A stretch of DNA of 64,000 nt, from contig CAVYCQ010000003.1 of assembly GCA_963767045.1 (NCBI GenBank), positions 658,238-722,237 of the forward strand. Reading direction: 5' to 3'. A program made the position numbers and the translations under genes. Shown here one piece after another: positions 36,566-45,985 of this stretch. Source of the stretch: an uncultured Acidobacteriaceae bacterium. GTDB lineage: Bacteria > Acidobacteriota > Terriglobia > Terriglobales > Acidobacteriaceae. How positions within the stretch are numbered: the first letter of the stretch is position 1; each line of letters opens with the position of its first letter. The notes under the pieces are model-generated. The model was given only the letters and a program-made list of their open reading frames with translations. It had not been told where the DNA came from and made no database searches.

Positions 36566-36737
36566 CAGCGCTCGACCCGCCTTTTTGTCATCCGAGCTCA
36601 TGCAAATAGCGCATATATGATGGGATGGTGTTCTTCGACCAGACCCCGCACGATATGGAACGAATACTCGGCTGACCCATCTCACCAGCCCACAACTGAA
36701 GTTGCATCCAGTCGCCACCATGCCGAAACAGAGGGGA

Positions 36738-39065
36738 ATGATGAAGTCTCGCGTCGGCATTCTGTTGATGGGGCTGGCTCTTCTGTGCGGCGCACTCCAT
36801 GCTCAGGCCGCAGACGCGAACAGGCACGTTTCCATTTGGATTATTTCGTCGGAGGGATCGGGTCCAAACGACATTGCTCAGGGAGCGGACCTACCGTCTC
36901 GCATGGAGGCCTTGCGGTTGTCGCTCGCGGGAACCCGCGTACGGTTGCTTAATGTGGAAGCTCCGTTGGCGGCGAAGACCGGCAGCTGGTTTCCCGAATA
37001 CACAGTTCCGAATTTTCAAGCGGTGGCAAATCAGCGAGGGACATTCGCGGCGCTGGCGCGTTTTGCGGCGCAGAACAATGCTGACGTCGTTTTGCGTGTG
37101 ATCACATGGCGCGAGGCAGCCGATCTGCTGCGCGCCGCGCACACGACTGGCCCCGATGCGTTGCCGGACGTGATGGAAGTTGGTACGACGTGGACGGGGA
37201 ATCTAGCTGCGAGCGGTAGAATCCGATCCCGCCCGGATTGGCAAAAGAGCAGGGGAAAGTGGCGGGACGTGCTGAATGTCCCAGCCTGCGCGCTGCCGCT
37301 GATTACCGATGTCCGCCTTCTTTTCTACTGGAAGCGATTGCCTTCTGCTGCGCCTGACTCGCCTGCGCTGTCTCTCAATAACGCTAGTTGGCCGGCTATC
37401 CTCGACTCTCTCCGTAGCGGAACGTCTTCCGGTGAAACAATTACGCTCCCAACCGGGAACTCCCTTAACCTGCTTTACGATTACGTTTCGCTGGTCATGG
37501 CCGGCGGAAGCCAGTCCATTCTTCATGAGGATCTGTTCGGTTCTCGTCTGTCTCTCTCCAGCCAGAGCGCACTTTCCGTCCCGGTCTATCTTGCCGAACA
37601 CTCCTCGGTTCCTCTCGGTAAGGGTGAAGCTCGTCAGTTGGTCAGCTTTCCCGAAGCTACCCATGAAGAAGCAATGCGTGACTTCGTAAACGGCGGTTAT
37701 CGGGCAACCTTGGAACCCGCCAGTTTTATGACCCGATGGGCCTACGATTTCTACGGGCGGCCGCAAGAGAAGGACAAGGCGAAACGATTTTGGGATTACG
37801 CGGCGGCCGTAGTACCCCCGGGAGGTTTTAAAGGTGGCGGCGAACTCGTAGTTCTGAGCACGAAACCAGATCCCGAATTGGCTTTCAAGCTGGCTGACGC
37901 TCTGGCAACCGACCCGGAATATACGGAAAGGCTGGGCCAAGCCGGCTTCCTGGCCTCCGGCAAACCTGATTATGGGACAGACGCGTTGGTCGCATCCGTC
38001 ATCAAGGATGAGCGGGACGTTCAAGACGCACGCCTTTTCGGTGAAACCGTCCGCCAGGCTATCGACCAGGGGCATAGATACCCGGACTTCGCAGGATGGA
38101 CGGCGGTCATCGAGGATCCCGCCGTGATGGAAAAGCTTCAACGGGTTTGGCGCCGTATGGCGGAAGGGGACGTACCCGGCGTGCGCCAGGCCGCCAAAGA
38201 GGTCGACTGGGCGGTCAATTCCCGGATATATCCACCCGCACGGGCACTCAATGGGGTCATCCAGTCATGGCGACTCATTGCTGTTGTTCTTTCTCTGACA
38301 GCTTTTCTGGTGCTGCTGGGAGGGCTCCATCGACTGCGGCTGCGTCAGTTGGAGCAGCAGTTCAACATGCGCCTGGAAGAGCGTATCAACGAGCGGACTC
38401 GCATCGCGCGGGATTTGCACGATACGCTACTGCAAAGTTTTCACGGACTTTTGCTGCGATTTCAGGCGGCGACGTATCTTCTGCCAGAACGGCCAGAGGA
38501 AGCGCAGAAAACACTGGAGAGCGCGCTTGATCGGGCAGAGGAAGCGATTGCCGAGGGGCGTGATGCGGTGCGTGGTTTGCGCTCATCGACGGTCTTGACC
38601 AACGACCTTGCCGCGGCGATCAACACATCGGGCGCAGAACTCGCGACCGGTGAAACCAACCCACATCATGCGGTTTTTCATGTCAGGGTTGAAGGCGCGT
38701 CGCGCGACCTGAATCCGATATCGCGAGACGAAGTGTTTCGGATTGCCGTCGAGGCCATGCGCAACGCATTCAAGCACGCAGAGGCGCAGCGGATCGAAGT
38801 GGAAATTCAGTATCTCGAACGGCAATTCCGATTGCGGGTGCGAGATGATGGAAAGGGCGTTGACGAAAAGTTCGTGAACCAAGAAGGGGGCCGAGGACAC
38901 TACGGCATGCGCGGTATGCGGGAGCGCGCCAAACTCTTGGGTGGCAAGCTGACGGTGCGAAGTGAACCCGATGCGGGCACGGAACTGGAGCTGAGTATTC
39001 CTGCCGCGAATGCTTATGCGACGCCTGAGAGTGGGAAGCACCCGGCAGCTGAGAAAACCCGATAA
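36738..39065 (+). CDS. sensor histidine kinase (HisKA_3 + HATPase_c) with periplasmic solute-binding-protein-like sensor domain
   Basis: ATG 36738/36741 after GAGGGG. Signal/TM segment, then an extracytoplasmic domain of about 470 aa resembling sugar SBPs. TM segment WRLIAVVLSLTAFLVLLGGL. RIARDLHDTLLQ (HisKA_3 H-box). GHYGMRGMRERA..GG.L (G-boxes). Confidence 0.85.
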   Translation: MMKSRVGILLMGLALLCGALHAQAADANRHVSIWIISSEGSGPNDIAQGADLPSRMEALRLSLAGTRVRLLNVEAPLAAKTGSWFPEYTVPNFQAVANQRGTFAALARFAAQNNADVVLRVITWREAADLLRAAHTTGPDALPDVMEVGTTWTGNLAASGRIRSRPDWQKSRGKWRDVLNVPACALPLITDVRLLFYWKRLPSAAPDSPALSLNNASWPAILDSLRSGTSSGETITLPTGNSLNLLYDYVSLVMAGGSQSILHEDLFGSRLSLSSQSALSVPVYLAEHSSVPLGKGEARQLVSFPEATHEEAMRDFVNGGYRATLEPASFMTRWAYDFYGRPQEKDKAKRFWDYAAAVVPPGGFKGGGELVVLSTKPDPELAFKLADALATDPEYTERLGQAGFLASGKPDYGTDALVASVIKDERDVQDARLFGETVRQAIDQGHRYPDFAGWTAVIEDPAVMEKLQRVWRRMAEGDVPGVRQAAKEVDWAVNSRIYPPARALNGVIQSWRLIAVVLSLTAFLVLLGGLHRLRLRQLEQQFNMRLEERINERTRIARDLHDTLLQSFHGLLLRFQAATYLLPERPEEAQKTLESALDRAEEAIAEGRDAVRGLRSSTVLTNDLAAAINTSGAELATGETNPHHAVFHVRVEGASRDLNPISRDEVFRIAVEAMRNAFKHAEAQRIEVEIQYLERQFRLRVRDDGKGVDEKFVNQEGGRGHYGMRGMRERAKLLGGKLTVRSEPDAGTELELSIPAANAYATPESGKHPAAEKTR

Positions 39066-39068
39066 TTT

Positions 39069-39163
39069 TGGCGGAAGTGCGTGCGAGTCGAACACACCGT
39101 CGCCCGTTAAGAACGACCACCGGTTTTGAAGACCGGGAGGATCACCGGAACCTAAGCACTTCC
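39069..39163 (-). tRNA. selC: tRNA-Sec (anticodon UCA)
   Basis: The reverse complement reads GGAAGTGC-TT-AGGTTC-CGGT-GATCCT-C-CCGGT-CTTCAAA-ACCGG-TG-GTCGTTC-TTAAC-GGGCGAC-G-GTGTG-TTCGACT-CGCAC-GCACTTCC-G-CCA. It is 95 nt, with an 8-bp acceptor, a 6-bp D stem (1 mismatch) with a 4-nt loop, a UCA anticodon, a 7-bp extra arm, a 5-bp T stem and an encoded CCA. This is the bacterial 8/5 tRNA-Sec architecture. Confidence 0.9.
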
Positions 39164-39282: not shown

Positions 39283-40350
39283 TTGGCCGCTTCCACAGCA
39301 ATAAGACTGACCCAGCAGGTCAAAGCCGGCGGATGCGCGAGCAAACTGCCGCCAGGATTGCTGGCAGCAGTGCTTTCCAAGCTGCCGCGGCAGACGGATG
39401 CCAATCTTTTGGTTGGCTTCGATACCTCCGATGACGCCGGGGTTTATCGCATCGCACCGAACCTGGCCCTGGTGCAGACTGTGGACTTCTTTACCCCGCT
39501 GGTGGATGACCCCTATACCTTCGGCCAGATTGCGGCCACCAATGCGCTCAGTGACGTGTATGCCATGGGGGGACGGCCGGTTACTGCCCTCTCCGTCGTG
39601 TGTTTTCCCCAGGACGGGGACCTGAAGGTTCTTGAGGCGATTATGTGCGGGGGCATGGCGAAACTTGCCGAAGCGTCCTGCGTGGTCCTGGGTGGCCATA
39701 GCGTGCGCGATCAGGAGATCAAGTTTGGCTACGCGGTGACGGGGCTCATCGATCCCGATCGTGTGCTGACTAATGCGGGCGCGCAACAGGGCGACGATCT
39801 CATACTTACCAAGCCCATCGGCACAGGAGTGATTACGACTGCGCTGAAACAAGGAAAGGCCGAGCCGGCCTGGGTGGCGGAGGCAATCCGCTCCATGACC
39901 ACGCTCAACCGTTTGCCGTCGGAAGTGGTGACAGGCGCGGAGGGTGTTCACGCCATGACGGACGTAACCGGCTTTGGCCTGATGGGGCATGCTCGTGAGC
40001 TCGCCATCGGGAGCGGCATGCGTATTGAGATTTTTGTCGAGCAGGTGCCGCGGATAGAAGGCGCGCTCGATGCCATTGAACGGGGGGCTATTCCCGCCGG
40101 CCTGCTTGCCAATCGCGAGTTTGCCGAATGCGTAAGCGCGGATGCACCCGGGGCTGCGATTGCGGACGAGGTGCGCGCCCTGCTGTATGACCCGCAAACC
40201 GCAGGCGGTCTGCTGGTTTCCGTTGCGGCCGGCGGCTCCCACGCATTGTTGCAGGCTCTGAACGCTGCAGGTGTAGCCGCAGCCAGGATTGGCAGCGTGC
40301 TCGGCCCCTATGCCGCGGGCTCGGGCGAGCCGGCGATTCTGCTGCGATAA
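39283..40350 (+). CDS. selD: selenide, water dikinase (selenophosphate synthetase), Cys-type
   Basis: TTG 39283 with GAGGAG at 39270-39275. RLTQQVKAGGCASKL (Cys as TGC, plus Lys). DDAGVY, DFFTP.VDDPY.FG.IAA.NALSD..AMGG and GGHS blocks. Confidence 0.93.
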   Translation: MAASTAIRLTQQVKAGGCASKLPPGLLAAVLSKLPRQTDANLLVGFDTSDDAGVYRIAPNLALVQTVDFFTPLVDDPYTFGQIAATNALSDVYAMGGRPVTALSVVCFPQDGDLKVLEAIMCGGMAKLAEASCVVLGGHSVRDQEIKFGYAVTGLIDPDRVLTNAGAQQGDDLILTKPIGTGVITTALKQGKAEPAWVAEAIRSMTTLNRLPSEVVTGAEGVHAMTDVTGFGLMGHARELAIGSGMRIEIFVEQVPRIEGALDAIERGAIPAGLLANREFAECVSADAPGAAIADEVRALLYDPQTAGGLLVSVAAGGSHALLQALNAAGVAAARIGSVLGPYAAGSGEPAILLR

Positions 40351-40377: not shown

Positions 40378-41832
40378 ATGAAACCGAAGCAACCGGTGAC
40401 CGATCACAGCGAGGGCAATCTATACCGGCTGATTCCCTCTCTGCATGAGCTATTGCTGACGCCGGGATTTGCTGCACTGCTCGAGACCCACTCTCGCGAC
40501 TCGGCGACGTCTGCGGTGCGCGCCGTGCTGGCACGCCTCAAGCAGGAGATTGCAGAAGGCCATCACACCCAGGCAAGCCTGGAACGCGAGCTGGCATTGC
40601 TGCACATCACGGTTGCCGGCGAAATCGCCGAGGGTGCGCGCTACAGCTTGCAGCGCGTAATCAACGCCACCGGGGTGGTTCTGCATACAAATCTCGGGCG
40701 CGCTCCGTTGAGCCTCGCCGCACTGGCACACGTTGTCGAGACCGCGTGCGGATACTCAAACCTGGAACTCGATCTTGAATCGGGCGAGCGCAGCCGCCGC
40801 GATGTTCACGCGGAGGAACTTCTGCTGCGCGTTGTGGCGGCGCAGGGGGCAGCGGCCCTGGTCGTCAATAACTGTGCAGCAGCCACGTTTCTCGCCCTCA
40901 ACACGCTCGCGGAGGGTGGCGAGGTGATTGTCTCCCGCGGGGAGTTGGTGGAGATCGGCGGAGGGTTCCGCATCCCTGAGATTCTTGCTAAGTCCGGCGC
41001 CATGCTGCGTGAGGTGGGCACCACCAACCGCACCCGGCTGGCCGATTACGAAAATGCAATCTCACCCGCCACGCGGCTTATTTTGCGGGTGCACCAATCT
41101 AACTTCTCGATGGAAGGCTTCGTCGAACGACCCACGTTGCGCGACCTGGTTTCTCTTGGGATGCGCGCCAATCTGCCTGTATTTCACGATCAGGGAACCG
41201 GCTTGCTTGGCTCGCTCGAACTGCTCGGCATCGGCTCTGAGCCCACTTTGCCAGATAGCTTCCACATGGGTCCTGATCTGATTGCCGCCAGCGGTGACAA
41301 GCTGCTCGGCGGTCCACAATGCGGCTTGCTCATCGGGCGTACGGAGCTAGTGCAGCGCATCCGCAAGAATCCTCTGTACCGCACCTATCGTGTCGACAAG
41401 CTTACCTACGCGGCACTCGAAGCAACTCTCATGGACCACGTTGCGCAGAAAGATTCGAGCATCCCAGTGCAGAGAATGTTGAACATGGCAGCGGAAGAAG
41501 TATTCGCACGCTGTGAGCGGATCAGCCGCCAGGTCAACTCCGCCGAACTCGCCGCGCAGGCCGTACCGGTGGAGAGCCTGATCGGGGGCGGCACGGCGCC
41601 CACGGCCCGGCTGCAGAGCGCCGCAGTTTCTCTTCGTCACGCGCTGCTACAACCACAGGCACTGCTGCTGGCTCTTCGCCGGCTTGAGCCGCCGGTGGTG
41701 GGCCGCATCCACGAAGAGCAGGTCTTGCTCGATCTGCGCACTGTCGAACCGGAATTCGACGCAACCTTGGCCGAGTTACTGCAGCGGATTGACACTGGCT
41801 TGGTCACTGCGCAAAAGGCCGCGCACCAGTGA
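40378..41832 (+). CDS. selA: L-seryl-tRNA(Sec) selenium transferase
   Basis: LIPSLHELL.., VINATGVVLHTNLGRAP, NNCAAA and SGDKLLGGPQCGL (PLP lysine) blocks. Confidence 0.93.
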   Translation: MKPKQPVTDHSEGNLYRLIPSLHELLLTPGFAALLETHSRDSATSAVRAVLARLKQEIAEGHHTQASLERELALLHITVAGEIAEGARYSLQRVINATGVVLHTNLGRAPLSLAALAHVVETACGYSNLELDLESGERSRRDVHAEELLLRVVAAQGAAALVVNNCAAATFLALNTLAEGGEVIVSRGELVEIGGGFRIPEILAKSGAMLREVGTTNRTRLADYENAISPATRLILRVHQSNFSMEGFVERPTLRDLVSLGMRANLPVFHDQGTGLLGSLELLGIGSEPTLPDSFHMGPDLIAASGDKLLGGPQCGLLIGRTELVQRIRKNPLYRTYRVDKLTYAALEATLMDHVAQKDSSIPVQRMLNMAAEEVFARCERISRQVNSAELAAQAVPVESLIGGGTAPTARLQSAAVSLRHALLQPQALLLALRRLEPPVVGRIHEEQVLLDLRTVEPEFDATLAELLQRIDTGLVTAQKAAHQ

Positions 41833-41863
41833 CGCGAGCTGCGACGCATGGTTCAGCGTTAGC

Positions 41864-43759
41864 ATGACGCAACCGGTCAAGTCCGTAGTGATCGGCACCG
41901 CGGGTCATATCGATCACGGCAAGACTGCGTTAGTGCGGGCTCTTACGGGCATCGATGCAGATCGCTTGCCGGAAGAAAAGCGGCGCGGCATCACCATCGA
42001 TCTTGGCTTCGCCTTTCTCGAGGCTGTGTCTTCCTCTGGACGCCCACTCAGAATCAGCTTCGTCGATGTGCCCGGCCACAGCCTATTCATTCACAACATG
42101 CTCGCCGGGGCTGGATGCATCGGAGCCGTGATGCTGGTGATCTCCGCGCAGGAGGGTGTGAAACCACAAACCGTGGAGCATCTCGCTATTTGTAGCCTGC
42201 TTGGCGTGCGCACCGGCCTAACAGTGATTACCAAGATCGATACCGTTAGCCCCGCCCGTGCCGCACAAGTGGAGCTGGAGGTGAAGGAATTCCTTGGTGG
42301 AAGTTTTCTCGGCGATGGGCGTGCAGAGATTCTCGGGGTAAGCGCAATCACGGGGCAAGACATAGACCCGCTGCGGCGAAAGCTTATCGGGCTTGCCGAG
42401 GAGGCGCGCGACAGCGATCTCGATCACCTGCCCAGGCTCCCCATAGACCGCGCGTTCGTGATGAAGGGATTTGGCACCGTGGTTACGGGCACCCTGCTCT
42501 CAGGCAGTTTCCGTGCGGGACAATCGCTCACCCTGGAGCCGGGAGGACGTTCTGTGCGCGTGCGCGGAATGCAGAGCCATGGGCGCGCGGAAGATCTGGC
42601 TCTTTCCGGCTCGCGCGTTGCCTTGAACCTCTCAGGTGTTGAGGTGTCGGAAGTGAGCCGGGGGCAGACACTGGTTGCTCCTGAGACACTCACCGCTGTT
42701 ACTTCGATCGACGTGGAAGCCTGGTTGCTGCCTGGATCTTCGGCGCTGAAGCATGGCGCGGTGGTTCATTTCCACGCGTTTACCTCGAACGTCCTGGCCA
42801 CAGCACTGCTATATGGCCGCAGCAGGTTCGAGGCAGGCGCGAACAGGCTGCTCCGGATCAAACTCCAGACCCCTATCCTGCTCACCACCGGCGATCCATT
42901 CGTGCTGCGACAGGTTTCACCACCGGCGACCATTGGGGGTGGACGGGTGTTGGATGCGCACCCCGTGGCAAAACTGCGCAAAGCAGAAGTTATGGCGTGG
43001 CTGGAATCTTTGCAAAGCGCCCCGGAAGGAGAACGGCTTTTCCTTCGGGTAGCGCGCCGCGGCACAAAAGGGCTTACACTCCAGCGTCTGATGGCAGAAA
43101 CCGGCCTGGCCCGCGAAGCCGCCGAGCGCCGGCTGCAGCCCCTTATCCTAAGCCATCGTTTGCTGCAGATACCGGGCGAGCTTCTCTTTGCCGGAGCGGC
43201 CCTCGATGCAGCCTGCAAAAGTATTGGCAGAGTCTTACAACAGCACGTGAGCGGTCTCAAGCGATCCGAGCTCAGAAGCCGGACCTCGCTCACTCCGGAG
43301 GTTCTCGATTTTTCGCTCCAACGGCTTGCCGGCTCGCAGGAGATCCGGCTAAAAGGCGAGCTGGTCTATCCCGCGGGAGCCGGCACTCCTCCGTCCGCTC
43401 CTGAAGATGCAAAGCTTTCCACGATCGCGGCCGTCTACCGCAAGGCTGGGCTGTCTGCTCCCTTGATCTCTGAAGTAGCGGCCACGCTGAAGTGCAAGGA
43501 GAGCGAATTGCGTGCGCTGATCACATTGCTGCTGCGGGAAAAGATCCTCGTGCCGATGGGAAGCGAGAATCTGCTGATGCACCATGAAGCGCTCGATCAA
43601 CTACGCGCCACGATAAGCGAACTTCGCGGCCAGACTATCGATGTAGGCCGCTTCAAACAGATAACCGGCTTGTCTAGAAAGTACGCCATCCCCTTGTTGG
43701 AGTATCTCGATCGGCAAAGGATTACGCGTAAAATAGGCGATCAGCGCCTGGTGATCTAG
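41864..43759 (+). CDS. selB: selenocysteine-specific translation elongation factor
   Basis: VIGTAGHIDHGKTALV..LTG...DRL.EEK.RGITIDLGFA and DVPGH GTPase motifs. C-terminal winged-helix region ends ..AIPLLEYLDRQRITRKIGDQRLV. ATG 41864 lies inside a longer track ORF. Confidence 0.93.
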   Translation: MTQPVKSVVIGTAGHIDHGKTALVRALTGIDADRLPEEKRRGITIDLGFAFLEAVSSSGRPLRISFVDVPGHSLFIHNMLAGAGCIGAVMLVISAQEGVKPQTVEHLAICSLLGVRTGLTVITKIDTVSPARAAQVELEVKEFLGGSFLGDGRAEILGVSAITGQDIDPLRRKLIGLAEEARDSDLDHLPRLPIDRAFVMKGFGTVVTGTLLSGSFRAGQSLTLEPGGRSVRVRGMQSHGRAEDLALSGSRVALNLSGVEVSEVSRGQTLVAPETLTAVTSIDVEAWLLPGSSALKHGAVVHFHAFTSNVLATALLYGRSRFEAGANRLLRIKLQTPILLTTGDPFVLRQVSPPATIGGGRVLDAHPVAKLRKAEVMAWLESLQSAPEGERLFLRVARRGTKGLTLQRLMAETGLAREAAERRLQPLILSHRLLQIPGELLFAGAALDAACKSIGRVLQQHVSGLKRSELRSRTSLTPEVLDFSLQRLAGSQEIRLKGELVYPAGAGTPPSAPEDAKLSTIAAVYRKAGLSAPLISEVAATLKCKESELRALITLLLREKILVPMGSENLLMHHEALDQLRATISELRGQTIDVGRFKQITGLSRKYAIPLLEYLDRQRITRKIGDQRLVI

Positions 43760-43760
43760 C

Positions 43761-44372
43761 ATGGATTGTGCTAATCTTTGGCTCGGAACCATGACGGACC
43801 CTGAGAAGAAAATCGATCTGATCGAGGATGCTGACGCGACGGGCGAGGTAGCGCAGGTCTATGACGAATGGCGCGCCCATTCGGGCCGCCAGCAGATGCC
43901 CGGCATTCTCAAGTGCTTTAGCCATCGCCCTGATTTCCTGCGCGAAGTCATGAGCTTCAGCAACACCGTCCATTTTTCTGAAGGGCACCTCACGCGCAGG
44001 ACCAAGGAAGCGATCGCCAGTTGGGTCTCTTGGCTCAATCGCTGTCCCTATTGACTGGATTCGCATGCTTACTTCCTGCGGGTTCAGGGAGCAGAAGAAC
44101 AAACAGTCCAGGCGCTGGCGGAGGGCAAGCTCGACGAGGCAGCACTCGACGACGCGCACCGTGCGCTGCTGGAGTATGTCACTAAGGTGACCGAGGCGGC
44201 GTATCGCACCACCCCGGAAGATGTGCAAAAACTGCGTCAACATGGTTGGAGCGAGCCTCAAATTGCGGAAGCCGTATACATCACTGCGCTATTTGCCTTT
44301 TTCAATCGCGTGGCGGACGCCTTCGGTATTGCGCCGCAGGGCTATCTTGAAATGAACCAGATGACTAAGTGA
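43761..44372 (+). CDS. AhpD/carboxymuconolactone-decarboxylase-family selenoprotein (TGA 44052..44054 read as Sec; motif C-P-Y-U-L-D-S-H)
   Basis: Track ORFs 43761..44054 and 44187..44372 share a frame, and the 132 nt between them has no further stop. The junction WLNRCPYULDSHAYF aligns with the AhpD core C-x-x-C-x-x-x-H. SECIS-like hairpin at 44072..44091. Lies immediately 3' of selB. Alternative start ATG 43791. Confidence 0.8.
44072..44091 (+). promoter_or_regulatory. candidate bacterial SECIS hairpin for the AhpD-like gene
   Basis: CUUCCUG (44072-44078) pairs with CAGGGAG (44085-44091), with one G-U pair. Loop CGGGUU (44079-44084) begins 24 nt after the UGA. Confidence 0.55.
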
Positions 44373-44420
44373 ATGGGAAACATTGAAGTTGGCGCAGCGC
44401 GTGGCTTGCCGGGACCCTGG

Positions 44421-44490
44421 TGACTGGACGGGTGCCCCAGGTTCGCGCCAGCGTACCTGGGGAGAAAGTGGTTTTTTCGATTGCTTTCAC
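44421..44490 (-). repeat. intergenic repeat family B, partial inverted copy 4; in the plus sense it looks like a terminator
   Basis: Stem CCCCAGGT (44435-44442) / ACCTGGGG (44455-44462) with a 12-nt loop. In the plus sense it is followed by GTTTTTTC (44470-44477). The core GGACGGGTGCCCC is the reverse complement of the family core. Confidence 0.55.
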
Positions 44491-44520
44491 TCGTTCCAAC
44501 CGCGACTTGTTCGATAGGAT

Positions 44521-44599
44521 AAGAGCTTTCGAAGGGCTTCGCCCGTCTTATTCTTACCAGGTACGCCTTGGCGAACCTGGGGCACCCGCCCAGTTTCTC
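44521..44599 (+). repeat. intergenic repeat family B, copy 3
   Basis: AAGAGCTTTCGAAGGGCTTCGCCCGTCTTATTCTTA, then stem CCAGGT (44557-44562) / ACCTGG (44575-44580), then GGGGCACCCGCCCAGTTTC. Confidence 0.6.
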
Positions 44600-44731
44600 T
44601 CACGCGTAACCTCTCCAGACGGGATGACAATGGGAACCTCCACCTTTCGGTGGATGCGGCCCTCCGCCCGGTCGCGATAGTGTTCCAGGTATGCGCTGGT
44701 TTGCCGAGGAGCCGGGATTAGGTAGGATTGC

Positions 44732-45985
44732 ATGGTGATTGCCACCGAAGTCCGCACGAAGAGAAGACTACGTAATTTGGTTCCGGGGGCGGGCCTGCTG
44801 TTGGCAGCACTTGCTACTTTGGCACTTGCGCTTTATCCCATCTACGTCATACGGCCCTTCGTAGAGCAAAAGCCGGCGGACCTTGCGCGCGCCCTTTGGG
44901 TTCAGCTGCACGACAAGGTAATCTTGTTTGCGCTTTTTTTCCTGATCACGCTGTGTGGGCTTTTTCTCTGGCGGCGTGCGGGCTGGGTGGTGCGACTTCT
45001 GCTGGTGGGGCCGGCCATGGCGATTGCTCTGATCGCTGTCGGCGCGGCATTTTTCAATCCCTACGAACAGCTCATGTTTCATCCGTTCGGAGAGCCGCAC
45101 TACGTGGCTATTCAGCAAGCCGGTATCGACGCTAAAGACATGGTCATCGCGGTCACCCTGGGCGGAGAGAGCCGCGCGTATCCCATCCGAGAAATGGGCT
45201 ATCACCACGTCGTAAATGATCGCCTTCATCAGCTGCCCATCGTCGTCACTTATTGAACGCTCTGCCACACGGGTCTGGTCTGGACCCGCACCATACAGGG
45301 GCGTGACTTGCACTTTCACCTGGCCGGCATCAACAATCAGAATTTCCTGATGCGCGACCAGGAGACAGGCAGCTTCTGGCAGCAGATCAACGGGACCGCG
45401 ATCGCCGGCCCGCTGAAAGGCTCAAAGCTCACGTTGGTTCCCCAGGATGAACTCACGTTCGGGTTGTGGAAGAAAGAACAACCGAACGGCACTGTGCTCG
45501 CTCCTCTGAGGCGCGATGCAGCCCACTATGAAAAAGCGACTTGGGAAAGTGAGATTGCAAAACTGCCGACTGTGATTCACGCGACCAAGGGGACACTTCC
45601 CGACCGGGAAACCATCCTGGGCGTGTCGTTGAACGGAGCCGCGCGTGCCTTTCCAGTGAGCAAGCTGACGCTACAGTCTCCGGTGCTGATCGATGACGTC
45701 GGAGAGAAGCCGATCATGCTCGTGCTTGGGCCAGATGGCAAATCGATCCGTGTCTTCTCGCGCCAGGTGGGTGCAAACGCGCTCGAGTTTTATGGCCGTG
45801 GCGGGGGAAACACTGGCGAGCCTTGGGTACTTCTGGACTCCAATACGCTCAGCGACTGGAGCTTCGAAGGGTGCGCGGTTTCTGGAGATTTCAAAGGACA
45901 GTGTCTGACACGGATCGATGCTCTGAAAGACTTCTGGTTCGATTGGCAGCACTACCATCCAGGCAGCAGTATCTATCGGCATTGA
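44732..45985 (+). CDS. membrane-anchored DUF3179-family protein, candidate selenoprotein (TGA 45254..45256 read as Sec; motif U-T-L-C)
   Basis: Track ORFs 44732..45256 and 45308..45985 share a frame, with 17 open codons between them. Junction HHVVNDRLHQLPIVVTY-U-TLCHTGLVW, versus the family pattern VND..G.PV.VTYCPLC.T. Downstream DUF3179 blocks LMRDQETGSFWQQ..G.AI.GPLKG and C-terminal DFWFDWQHYHPGSSIY. Three N-terminal TM helices. Hairpin at 45270..45288. Confidence 0.78.
45270..45288 (+). promoter_or_regulatory. candidate bacterial SECIS hairpin for the DUF3179 gene
   Basis: CGGGUCU (45270-45276) pairs with GGACCCG (45282-45288), 7 bp including one G-U pair. Apical loop GGUCU (45277-45281) begins 20 nt after the UGA. 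Confidence 0.55.

Follow-up and report, generated by a model that had tools for sequence, protein, structure and literature searches.

A DUF3179-family gene with a probable selenocysteine codon beside the selenocysteine genes of an uncultured Acidobacteriaceae bacterium

We examined a 64,000-nt stretch of contig CAVYCQ010000003.1 (assembly GCA_963767045.1, positions 658,238 to 722,237) from an uncultured Acidobacteriaceae bacterium, referred to here as the window. On its forward strand lies a gene of the DUF3179 family (44732..45985; 417 sense codons and a terminal TGA stop at 45983-45985) with an in-frame TGA at codon 175 (45254..45256), which aligns with the first Cys of the family motif T-Y-C-x-x-C and is very probably read as selenocysteine (Sec). 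The two open reading frames (ORFs) that make up this gene, 44732..45256 and 45308..45985, share one frame, the sole stop between them is the TGA at 45254-45256, and read-through gives the junction ...LHQLPIVVTY-[TGA]-TLCHTGLVWTR. A preliminary description of this DNA, made without database searches, had reported a single frame with a lone TGA and a 417-aa read-through product, and had placed that product in DUF3179. Sequence and translation bear out the former, and with U replaced by C the product matches PF11376 (DUF3179) at E 1.2e-60 and 205.8 bits, against a cut-off of 27, over profile positions 9-291 of 292 and protein residues 121-411; no model of NCBIfam was matched by the read-through protein. 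A scan of the window for long open frames flanking a TGA found 63 such places, with a Cys-type motif only at 45254 and, in a second gene described below, at 44052.

In the public collection this gene is wrongly split in two, appearing as separate products of 174 and 225 aa on one 858-kb contig. In clusters built at 90% identity, the one that contains the C-terminal half numbers 234 members, labelled hypothetical or DUF3179. Every one of the nearest database relatives (64-77% identity) is a fragment, ~230 aa long and restricted to the C-terminal 55% of the query. One N-terminal fragment stops at ...VTY and one fragment begins LCHTG. Such fragments are to be expected of gene callers that stop at a TGA. 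In the wider family, ~23 of the best 150 representatives begin just past the CxxC, at profile positions 180-190, and this suggests that DUF3179 has many Sec lineages.

A genome scan in which each species was represented by a single genome yielded 80 loci. Apart from the label of one locus, L041, they all come from Acidobacteriota metagenome-assembled genomes (MAGs; including Acidobacteriaceae, Terriglobales, Bryobacterales and Sulfotelmatobacter). Together with L001, which was fetched separately, these loci form a set of 81 whose proteins are 45-87% identical to the query. The TGA lies at the first-Cys column in 81/81 and is followed by 236-260 open codons. Where the residue is conserved, synonymous sites are free to vary both before and after the TGA (mean entropy 1.26 bits upstream and 1.30 bits downstream), which points to protein-level purifying selection on both halves. 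Full-length homologs (40-46% identity) have Cys in the TGA column, within TYCTLCH, in 14/14 cases. A sister Cys clade, comprising 84 loci from metagenomes and MAGs, served as a control; it has the same local peptide, CTLCHTGLVW, and carries TGC (74) or TGT (10) at this codon in 84/84 loci. Both the alignment of the UGA with the first Cys of CxxC and the occurrence of Sec/Cys pairs among relatives, as anticipated in the preliminary description, are borne out by these data. The flanking codons (45251-45259 in the window) also go with the form of the gene: the Tyr codon before the UGA is TAT in 77/78 TGA forms, with TAC 41 and TAT 25 among Cys forms, and the Thr codon after it is almost invariably ACG in TGA forms and free in Cys forms, which points to selection acting on the immediate UGA context. 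Because the TGA is kept throughout the set, is linked to the hairpin described next and lies near the sel machinery, UGA-175 is very probably decoded as Sec, and this is established as far as sequence comparison can go.

A hairpin of the bacterial selenocysteine insertion sequence (SECIS) type lies at 45270..45288 on the + strand, identified by its fold, by a freeze at synonymous sites and by its loss in Cys forms. Its 5' arm (45270-45276, CGGGUCU) and 3' arm (45282-45288, GGACCCG) enclose a GGUCU loop (45277-45281); the stem begins 13 nt downstream of the TGA and the UGA-to-loop distance is 20 nt, just as first described. Published criteria for bacterial SECIS elements comprise a loop of 3-9 nt with G in its first two positions, a stem of 4-16 bp, a spacing of 16-37 nt and a minimum free energy (MFE) of <= -7.5 kcal/mol (PMC13188914), and the window hairpin falls within them with its 5-nt loop, 7-bp stem, 20-nt spacing and -11.4 kcal/mol. 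Its significance is drawn only from comparative data, namely an analysis of synonymous sites with Cys forms as controls. The complete hairpin is present in 75/75 distinct TGA sequences, so that its expected conservation among TGA orthologs is confirmed, and in 2/65 distinct Cys sequences (counted with a GGU loop), the latter being close to the 4.5% obtained by random synonymous recoding of the peptide. Similarly, the Gly codon is GGT in 75/75 TGA forms and in 4/65 Cys forms, and the codons of the 65 distinct Cys forms that are equivalent to the hairpin region carry 1.0-2.2 bits of synonymous entropy. Since the synonymous freeze is confined to the hairpin, the register of the hairpin shifts between clades and the hairpin is lost in Cys forms, these comparisons indicate that selection acts on the hairpin and that its presence depends on the UGA.

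The register shift separates two Sec clades, clade A (the window and L001-L041) and clade B (L042-L081), which share 53% identity with each other and 47-48% with the Cys clade. With the U of UGA counted as nt 1, the clade A stem CGGGUCU/GGACCCG pairs nt 17-23 with nt 29-35 around a GGUCU loop at nt 24-28, and the clade B stem UCACACC/GGUGUGG pairs nt 12-18 with nt 24-30 around a GGUCU loop at nt 19-23. The two loops sit 5 nt apart on the same peptide-coding sequence, both registers encoding H-T-G-L-V-W with the synonymous differences ACG -> ACC and GTC -> GTG. GGUCU occurs twice in tandem in the clade A coding sequence; the clade A hairpin has the second of these copies in its loop, and the clade B hairpin the first. 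Synonymous entropy over codons +1 to +11 after the UGA compared with the rest of the gene is 0.27 vs 1.21 bits in clade A (p = 2.5e-6) and 0.37 vs 1.22 bits in clade B (p = 1e-4). The frozen codons run from +5 to +12 in clade A and from +3 to +9 in clade B, so the freeze is limited to the codons under each clade's own hairpin. The UGA-to-loop spacing in clade B, 15 nt, is just outside the range given in PMC13188914. Like the SECIS of Escherichia coli fdhF (UGA codon 140), these hairpins lie directly 3' of the UGA within the coding region, and the likeness of the GGU loop to that of fdhF, remarked on at the outset, holds for the whole loop sequence: GGUCU starts at nt 22 in E. coli fdhF, at nt 24 in the window and at nt 19 in clade B. 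The E. coli fdhF SECIS has a bulged U, whereas the window stem is a plain 7-bp helix without one and differs in stem sequence. The two-register hairpin illustrates how two SECIS positions can be accommodated by one coding sequence.

The machinery for Sec synthesis and decoding is encoded 1-6 kb upstream of the DUF3179 gene. The tRNA-Sec gene (selC, anticodon UCA; 39073..39163, - strand; ARAGORN, and Rfam RF01852 at 72.7 bits) is divergent from selD (selenophosphate synthetase; 39283..40350, + strand; TIGR00476, 369 bits), which is an uninterrupted ORF and is followed on the + strand by selA (selenocysteine synthase; 40378..41832; PF03841, E 2.2e-122) and selB (Sec-specific elongation factor; 41684..43759; TIGR00475, 354 bits over residues 68-689). 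The listed selB ORF begins at the leftmost TTG and overlaps selA by ~150 nt; its true start is probably near 41885 because the SelB model match begins only at residue 68. All four sel genes had been assigned to one strand block upstream, which is correct for selD, selA and selB and incorrect for selC, on the minus strand. The gene order continues with a CMD-like selenoprotein gene, a 360-nt spacer (44373-44731) containing a terminator-like hairpin at 44577-44593, and the DUF3179 gene, downstream of which are a DinB-family gene (-) and then a MacB-type permease gene. In 22-24/40 clade A loci, selA and selB are found no more than 5 kb upstream of the DUF3179 gene, as against 0/40 clade B loci. 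Because this proximity repeats across clade A, comparison of the loci indicates that the Acidobacteriaceae Sec machinery and its two client genes form a recurring cluster.

The second client, an AhpD/CMD-like selenoprotein gene (43761..44372, + strand, with an alternative start ATG at 43791; PF02627, E 6.4e-16), is situated between selB and the DUF3179 gene. It has an in-frame TGA at 44052-44054 within a C-P-Y-U motif, and this TGA is also present, just upstream of the DUF3179 gene, in 19 other clade A loci. A candidate SECIS at 44072-44091 on the + strand (CUUCCUG-CGGGUU-CAGGGAG) is conserved and located 17 nt downstream of the TGA. A conserved-looking 179-aa ORF on the minus strand (43722..44261) was rejected as an antisense shadow of this TGA-containing CMD gene. 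The AhpD-like family is already catalogued as a bacterial selenoprotein family with a CxxU motif (PMC9312934). AhpD/CMD-like selenoproteins (PF02627) and DUF3179(U) are thus both catalogued bacterial families with Sec in a CxxC-type motif, but the former are unrelated to DUF3179, soluble, devoid of a signal sequence and have Sec second in the motif.

Several further observations were made in these neighbourhoods. In eight clade A loci (L004, L006, L007, L011, L012, L017, L037 and L041), a Meth_synt_2-like gene of 368 aa lies between the CMD(U) and DUF3179(U) genes, ~1.1 kb upstream of the latter; the window spacer at 44373-44731 has no trace of this gene. Some clade A loci have a FecR gene nearby, and clade B genes are flanked by genes for a PilX_N-containing protein and an HAD hydrolase. 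Locus L041 (CAZZVD010000008.1), labelled as an Acetobacteraceae MAG, carries a clade A DUF3179(U) gene (72% identity) and a CMD(U) gene (89%); as these genes are typical of Acidobacteriaceae, the contig is probably mis-binned and transfer is less likely. On the other side of the sel genes, the window encodes a histidine kinase that begins with a periplasmic solute-binding domain (SBP_bac_1 + HisKA_3 + HATPase_c; 36702-39065, +), the gene for which ends 8 nt before the opposite-strand tRNA-Sec gene.

The read-through protein consists of an N-terminal membrane anchor and a DUF3179 domain. Hydropathy and the distribution of K/R identify three hydrophobic helices (aa 15-41, 59-83 and 83-110; 44774..45061, +), in agreement with the three transmembrane helices after a positively charged N-terminus that had been reported previously, and past residue 115 hydropathy finds no stretch hydrophobic enough to span a membrane. 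Five K/R precede the first hydrophobic segment, an RR occupies the short loop between the second and third, and loop 1 of the anchor has a conserved P-x-YVIRPF motif with conserved I40, R41, P42 and F43. The DUF3179 domain (aa 121-411 by the Pfam envelope; 45092..45964, +) is predicted to be extracytoplasmic. By the positive-inside rule the Sec-containing domain probably faces outward from the cytoplasmic membrane, an orientation with which the signal-peptide or lipoprotein-like N-termini of other family members agree. A structural model of the Cys homolog P0019 (45% identical to the window protein; AlphaFold2, pLDDT 92.2) shows a beta-rich domain preceded by three long helices at the N-terminus, so the outward-facing placement put forward in the preliminary description is supported as probable. 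The Cys pair C381/C391 is specific to the clade and would fit an extracytoplasmic structural disulfide.

Within the domain, U175-x-x-C178 is accompanied by the family-wide residues H158, D163, D209, W216 and Q218. Conservation was computed over 104 diverse representatives and is given in P0019 numbering, to which 3 is added for the window residue: C172 96%, C175 94%, H155 95%, D160 95%, D206 100%, W213 100% and Q215 96%. Nearly invariant across these representatives are H, D, T-Y-C-x-x-C, D, T, W and Q, and the window protein has all of the family marks, namely the upstream H/D, T-Y-U-x-x-C, the D..T.S.W.Q block and the C-terminal W..W. The motif had been given as C-P-L-C, which is indeed the commonest family variant (P at x1 in 34/104); in the clade of the window the motif is C/U-T-L-C-H. 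The family is very large, with 12,339 clusters at 50% identity matching at E <= 0.001. One member, P0126 (1587 aa), combines several repeats of DUF3179 with domains of the fibronectin type III kind. A PDB sequence search found no solved relatives, nor did a Foldseek search of the P0019 model against the PDB at E <= 0.001.

Although the preliminary description had proposed a candidate new selenoprotein family, the DUF3179 selenoprotein family and its Sec position are already known and the gene in the window is another member. The tables of PMC9312934 (2022) and PMC13188914 (2026) list 'DUF3179 domain-containing protein, pfam11376, UxxC/T' as a selenoprotein family, and the NCBI name of HXS11778.1, a Cys-form relative from an Acidobacteriaceae MAG, is 'DUF3179 domain-containing (seleno)protein'. 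Both reviews credit the DUF3179 selenoprotein to Zhang & Gladyshev 2007 (PMC1976440); the name DUF3179 is not used in the accessible part of that paper, the attribution therefore being that of the two reviews. The acidobacterial clade and the catalogued DUF3179 selenoproteins (UxxC/T) share the Pfam family and a Sec placed first in CxxC. The clade differs in its three-helix N-terminal anchor, its U-T-L-C-H motif, the C381/C391 pair and its linkage to sel genes.

These features are combined in an interpretation that we consider highly likely as a whole: a DUF3179 selenoprotein decoded via the hairpin, anchored in the membrane, facing outward and perhaps acting as a redox centre. The hairpin 13 nt 3' of the UGA would recruit SelB carrying Sec-tRNA(Sec) as the ribosome nears the UGA, with SelB, SelA, SelD and tRNA-Sec presumably supplied from the genes 1-6 kb upstream. 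Sec would then take the place of the first Cys of the nearly invariant CxxC. The three N-terminal helices and the K/R-rich cytoplasmic N-terminus would anchor the protein with its DUF3179 domain outside the membrane, where the U-x-x-C pair may form a redox-active selenol/thiol centre acting on an envelope substrate and probably exchanging electrons with thioredoxin-fold (TlpA/Redoxin-type) partners.

Several points weigh against this interpretation. The folding energy of the hairpin alone is unremarkable (z = -0.49 vs shuffles), and the peptide TLCHTGLVWTR by itself forces at least 4/7 pairs in the clade A register (17-23/29-35) and at least 5/7 in the clade B register (12-18/24-30). As the peptide alone forces most stem pairs, its coding sequence is almost pre-adapted to carry a SECIS. 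Of the conserved fold expected across orthologs, the conservation stood and the covariation did not: RNAalifold on clade A found 7 invariant pairs in a stem that is constant within the clade, with no classical covariation. The sequences are related, so locus counts overstate the number of independent events, and the predicted topology draws on hydropathy, the positive-inside rule and the model of a 45%-identical homolog. With regard to function, the fold has no solved relative among the PDB searches and hence gives no functional clue; DUF3179 is not a thioredoxin fold, with no Trx-like match in the Pfam, PDB sequence or Foldseek searches; the conserved His, Asp and Asp around the CxxC would suit a metal site too; and the PilX_N protein and HAD hydrolase beside clade B genes, like the Meth_synt_2-like and FecR genes of clade A, are uninformative.

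Two alternatives concern the decoding of the UGA. The TGA could be a genuine stop, in a disrupted gene, in two genes or through a sequencing error, so that no full-length protein is made; the public calls of 174 and 225 aa and the unexceptional energy of the isolated hairpin are in keeping with this. We regard it as extremely improbable, given that the same TGA column recurs in 81 species-level genomes with an open frame and purifying selection on both sides, that the sister clade has Cys at this column, that the hairpin and synonymous freeze go with the TGA and that Sec machinery adjoins the gene. Read-through without Sec, by near-cognate insertion of Trp or Cys or through an altered genetic code, is likewise very improbable: a TGA (45983-45985) terminates this same gene and is thus a functional stop in the genome, a dedicated tRNA-Sec and SelA, SelB and SelD have their genes close by, the hairpin after the UGA agrees with the consensus for SelB binding and the recoded position is a conserved Cys. 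The other alternatives leave Sec in place and concern its use. That the U-x-x-C pair is a redox-active selenol/thiol centre with an envelope substrate and thioredoxin-fold partners is a proposal that we would accept and doubt in about equal measure, and the redox function suggested in the preliminary description is accordingly a reasonable inference. It is favoured by the N-terminal AhpC-TSA/Redoxin domains fused to DUF3179 in P0131, P0215, P0229 and P0231, by the Redoxin gene that lies with a MerR gene upstream of a Cys form (L084), by the CMD (AhpD-like) gene that overlaps the start of another Cys form by 4 nt (L085), by the CMD(U) neighbour in the window and by the UxxT variants in the reviews, which fit a catalytic nucleophile better than a chelating pair. 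Possible, though doubtful, is the main rival to a redox function, in which U-x-x-C and the conserved His/Asp would be ligands of a metal (e.g. Cu, Zn, Fe or Hg) and the domain an envelope metal-binding, metal-chaperone or metalloenzyme module. The near-invariant H, D, C, C, D, W and Q are typical of the make-up of a metal site, and the MerR-family regulator adjoining the Cys form in L084 agrees with such a role. Furthermore, TlpA-type Redoxin domains, fused here to DUF3179, reduce the cysteines of copper chaperones, and Sec coordinates a metal in formate dehydrogenase and [NiFeSe] hydrogenase. However, the loss of one of two chelators in UxxT variants is harder to reconcile with chelation, no known metal-binding family or fold was matched in the Pfam, NCBIfam, PDB or Foldseek searches, and no metal transporter or chaperone gene recurs beside the gene in the loci examined. 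Finally, U-T-L-C-H could represent a modified haem c attachment motif (CXXCH), in a haem protein with a selenoether link, since CXXCH shows no variation across the Sec and Cys clades examined and the predicted location of the domain is that in which cytochrome c maturation takes place. This idea was rejected on the family-wide residue distribution and is most unlikely to hold: the position following the second Cys is occupied by His in 15/104 family representatives and by Arg in 47/104, making the His a feature of the clade and not of the family, no similarity to a cytochrome family or fold was found by Pfam or Foldseek, and no ccm or haem genes occur near the loci examined.

The favoured redox reading invites comparison with TlpA/ResA-type oxidoreductases, which are membrane-anchored and outward-facing, as predicted here, with a CxxC-type centre, and whose Redoxin domains occur fused to DUF3179. 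The lack of a thioredoxin fold sets DUF3179 apart; it may work like such an oxidoreductase without being a member of that group, and may be a partner or substrate of Redoxin domains as opposed to an analogue. More speculatively, and with low confidence, the locus could be a compact selenium island of the Acidobacteriaceae (selC, selD-selA-selB and the AhpD-like CxxU and DUF3179 UxxC clients). DUF3179 would here be a selenoenzyme inserted by the Sec translocon, facing outward and having a fold that lacks a solved relative, working with thioredoxin-fold and AhpD-like partners in an envelope redox system not described before, and its SECIS could slip by 5 nt between two tandem GGUCU units encoded by Gly-Leu-Val while the peptide stays unchanged. 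If true, this slip would be a simple route for the interconversion of Cys and Sec.

Here we have described a gene that, with hundreds of close relatives, is mis-annotated and appears publicly as a pair of hypothetical proteins, so that counts for acidobacterial selenoproteomes are too low. The status of DUF3179 as a selenoprotein family was published previously and is unchanged by these points, and the two-register SECIS, the cluster of sel and client genes and the Redoxin/AhpD-like leads may be modest additions beyond the searchable literature. A probable Sec at position 175 singles this residue out as the functional centre of a family that is very large, uncharacterized and without a solved fold relative, and the Redoxin fusions and AhpD-like neighbours provide a concrete redox hypothesis for its role.

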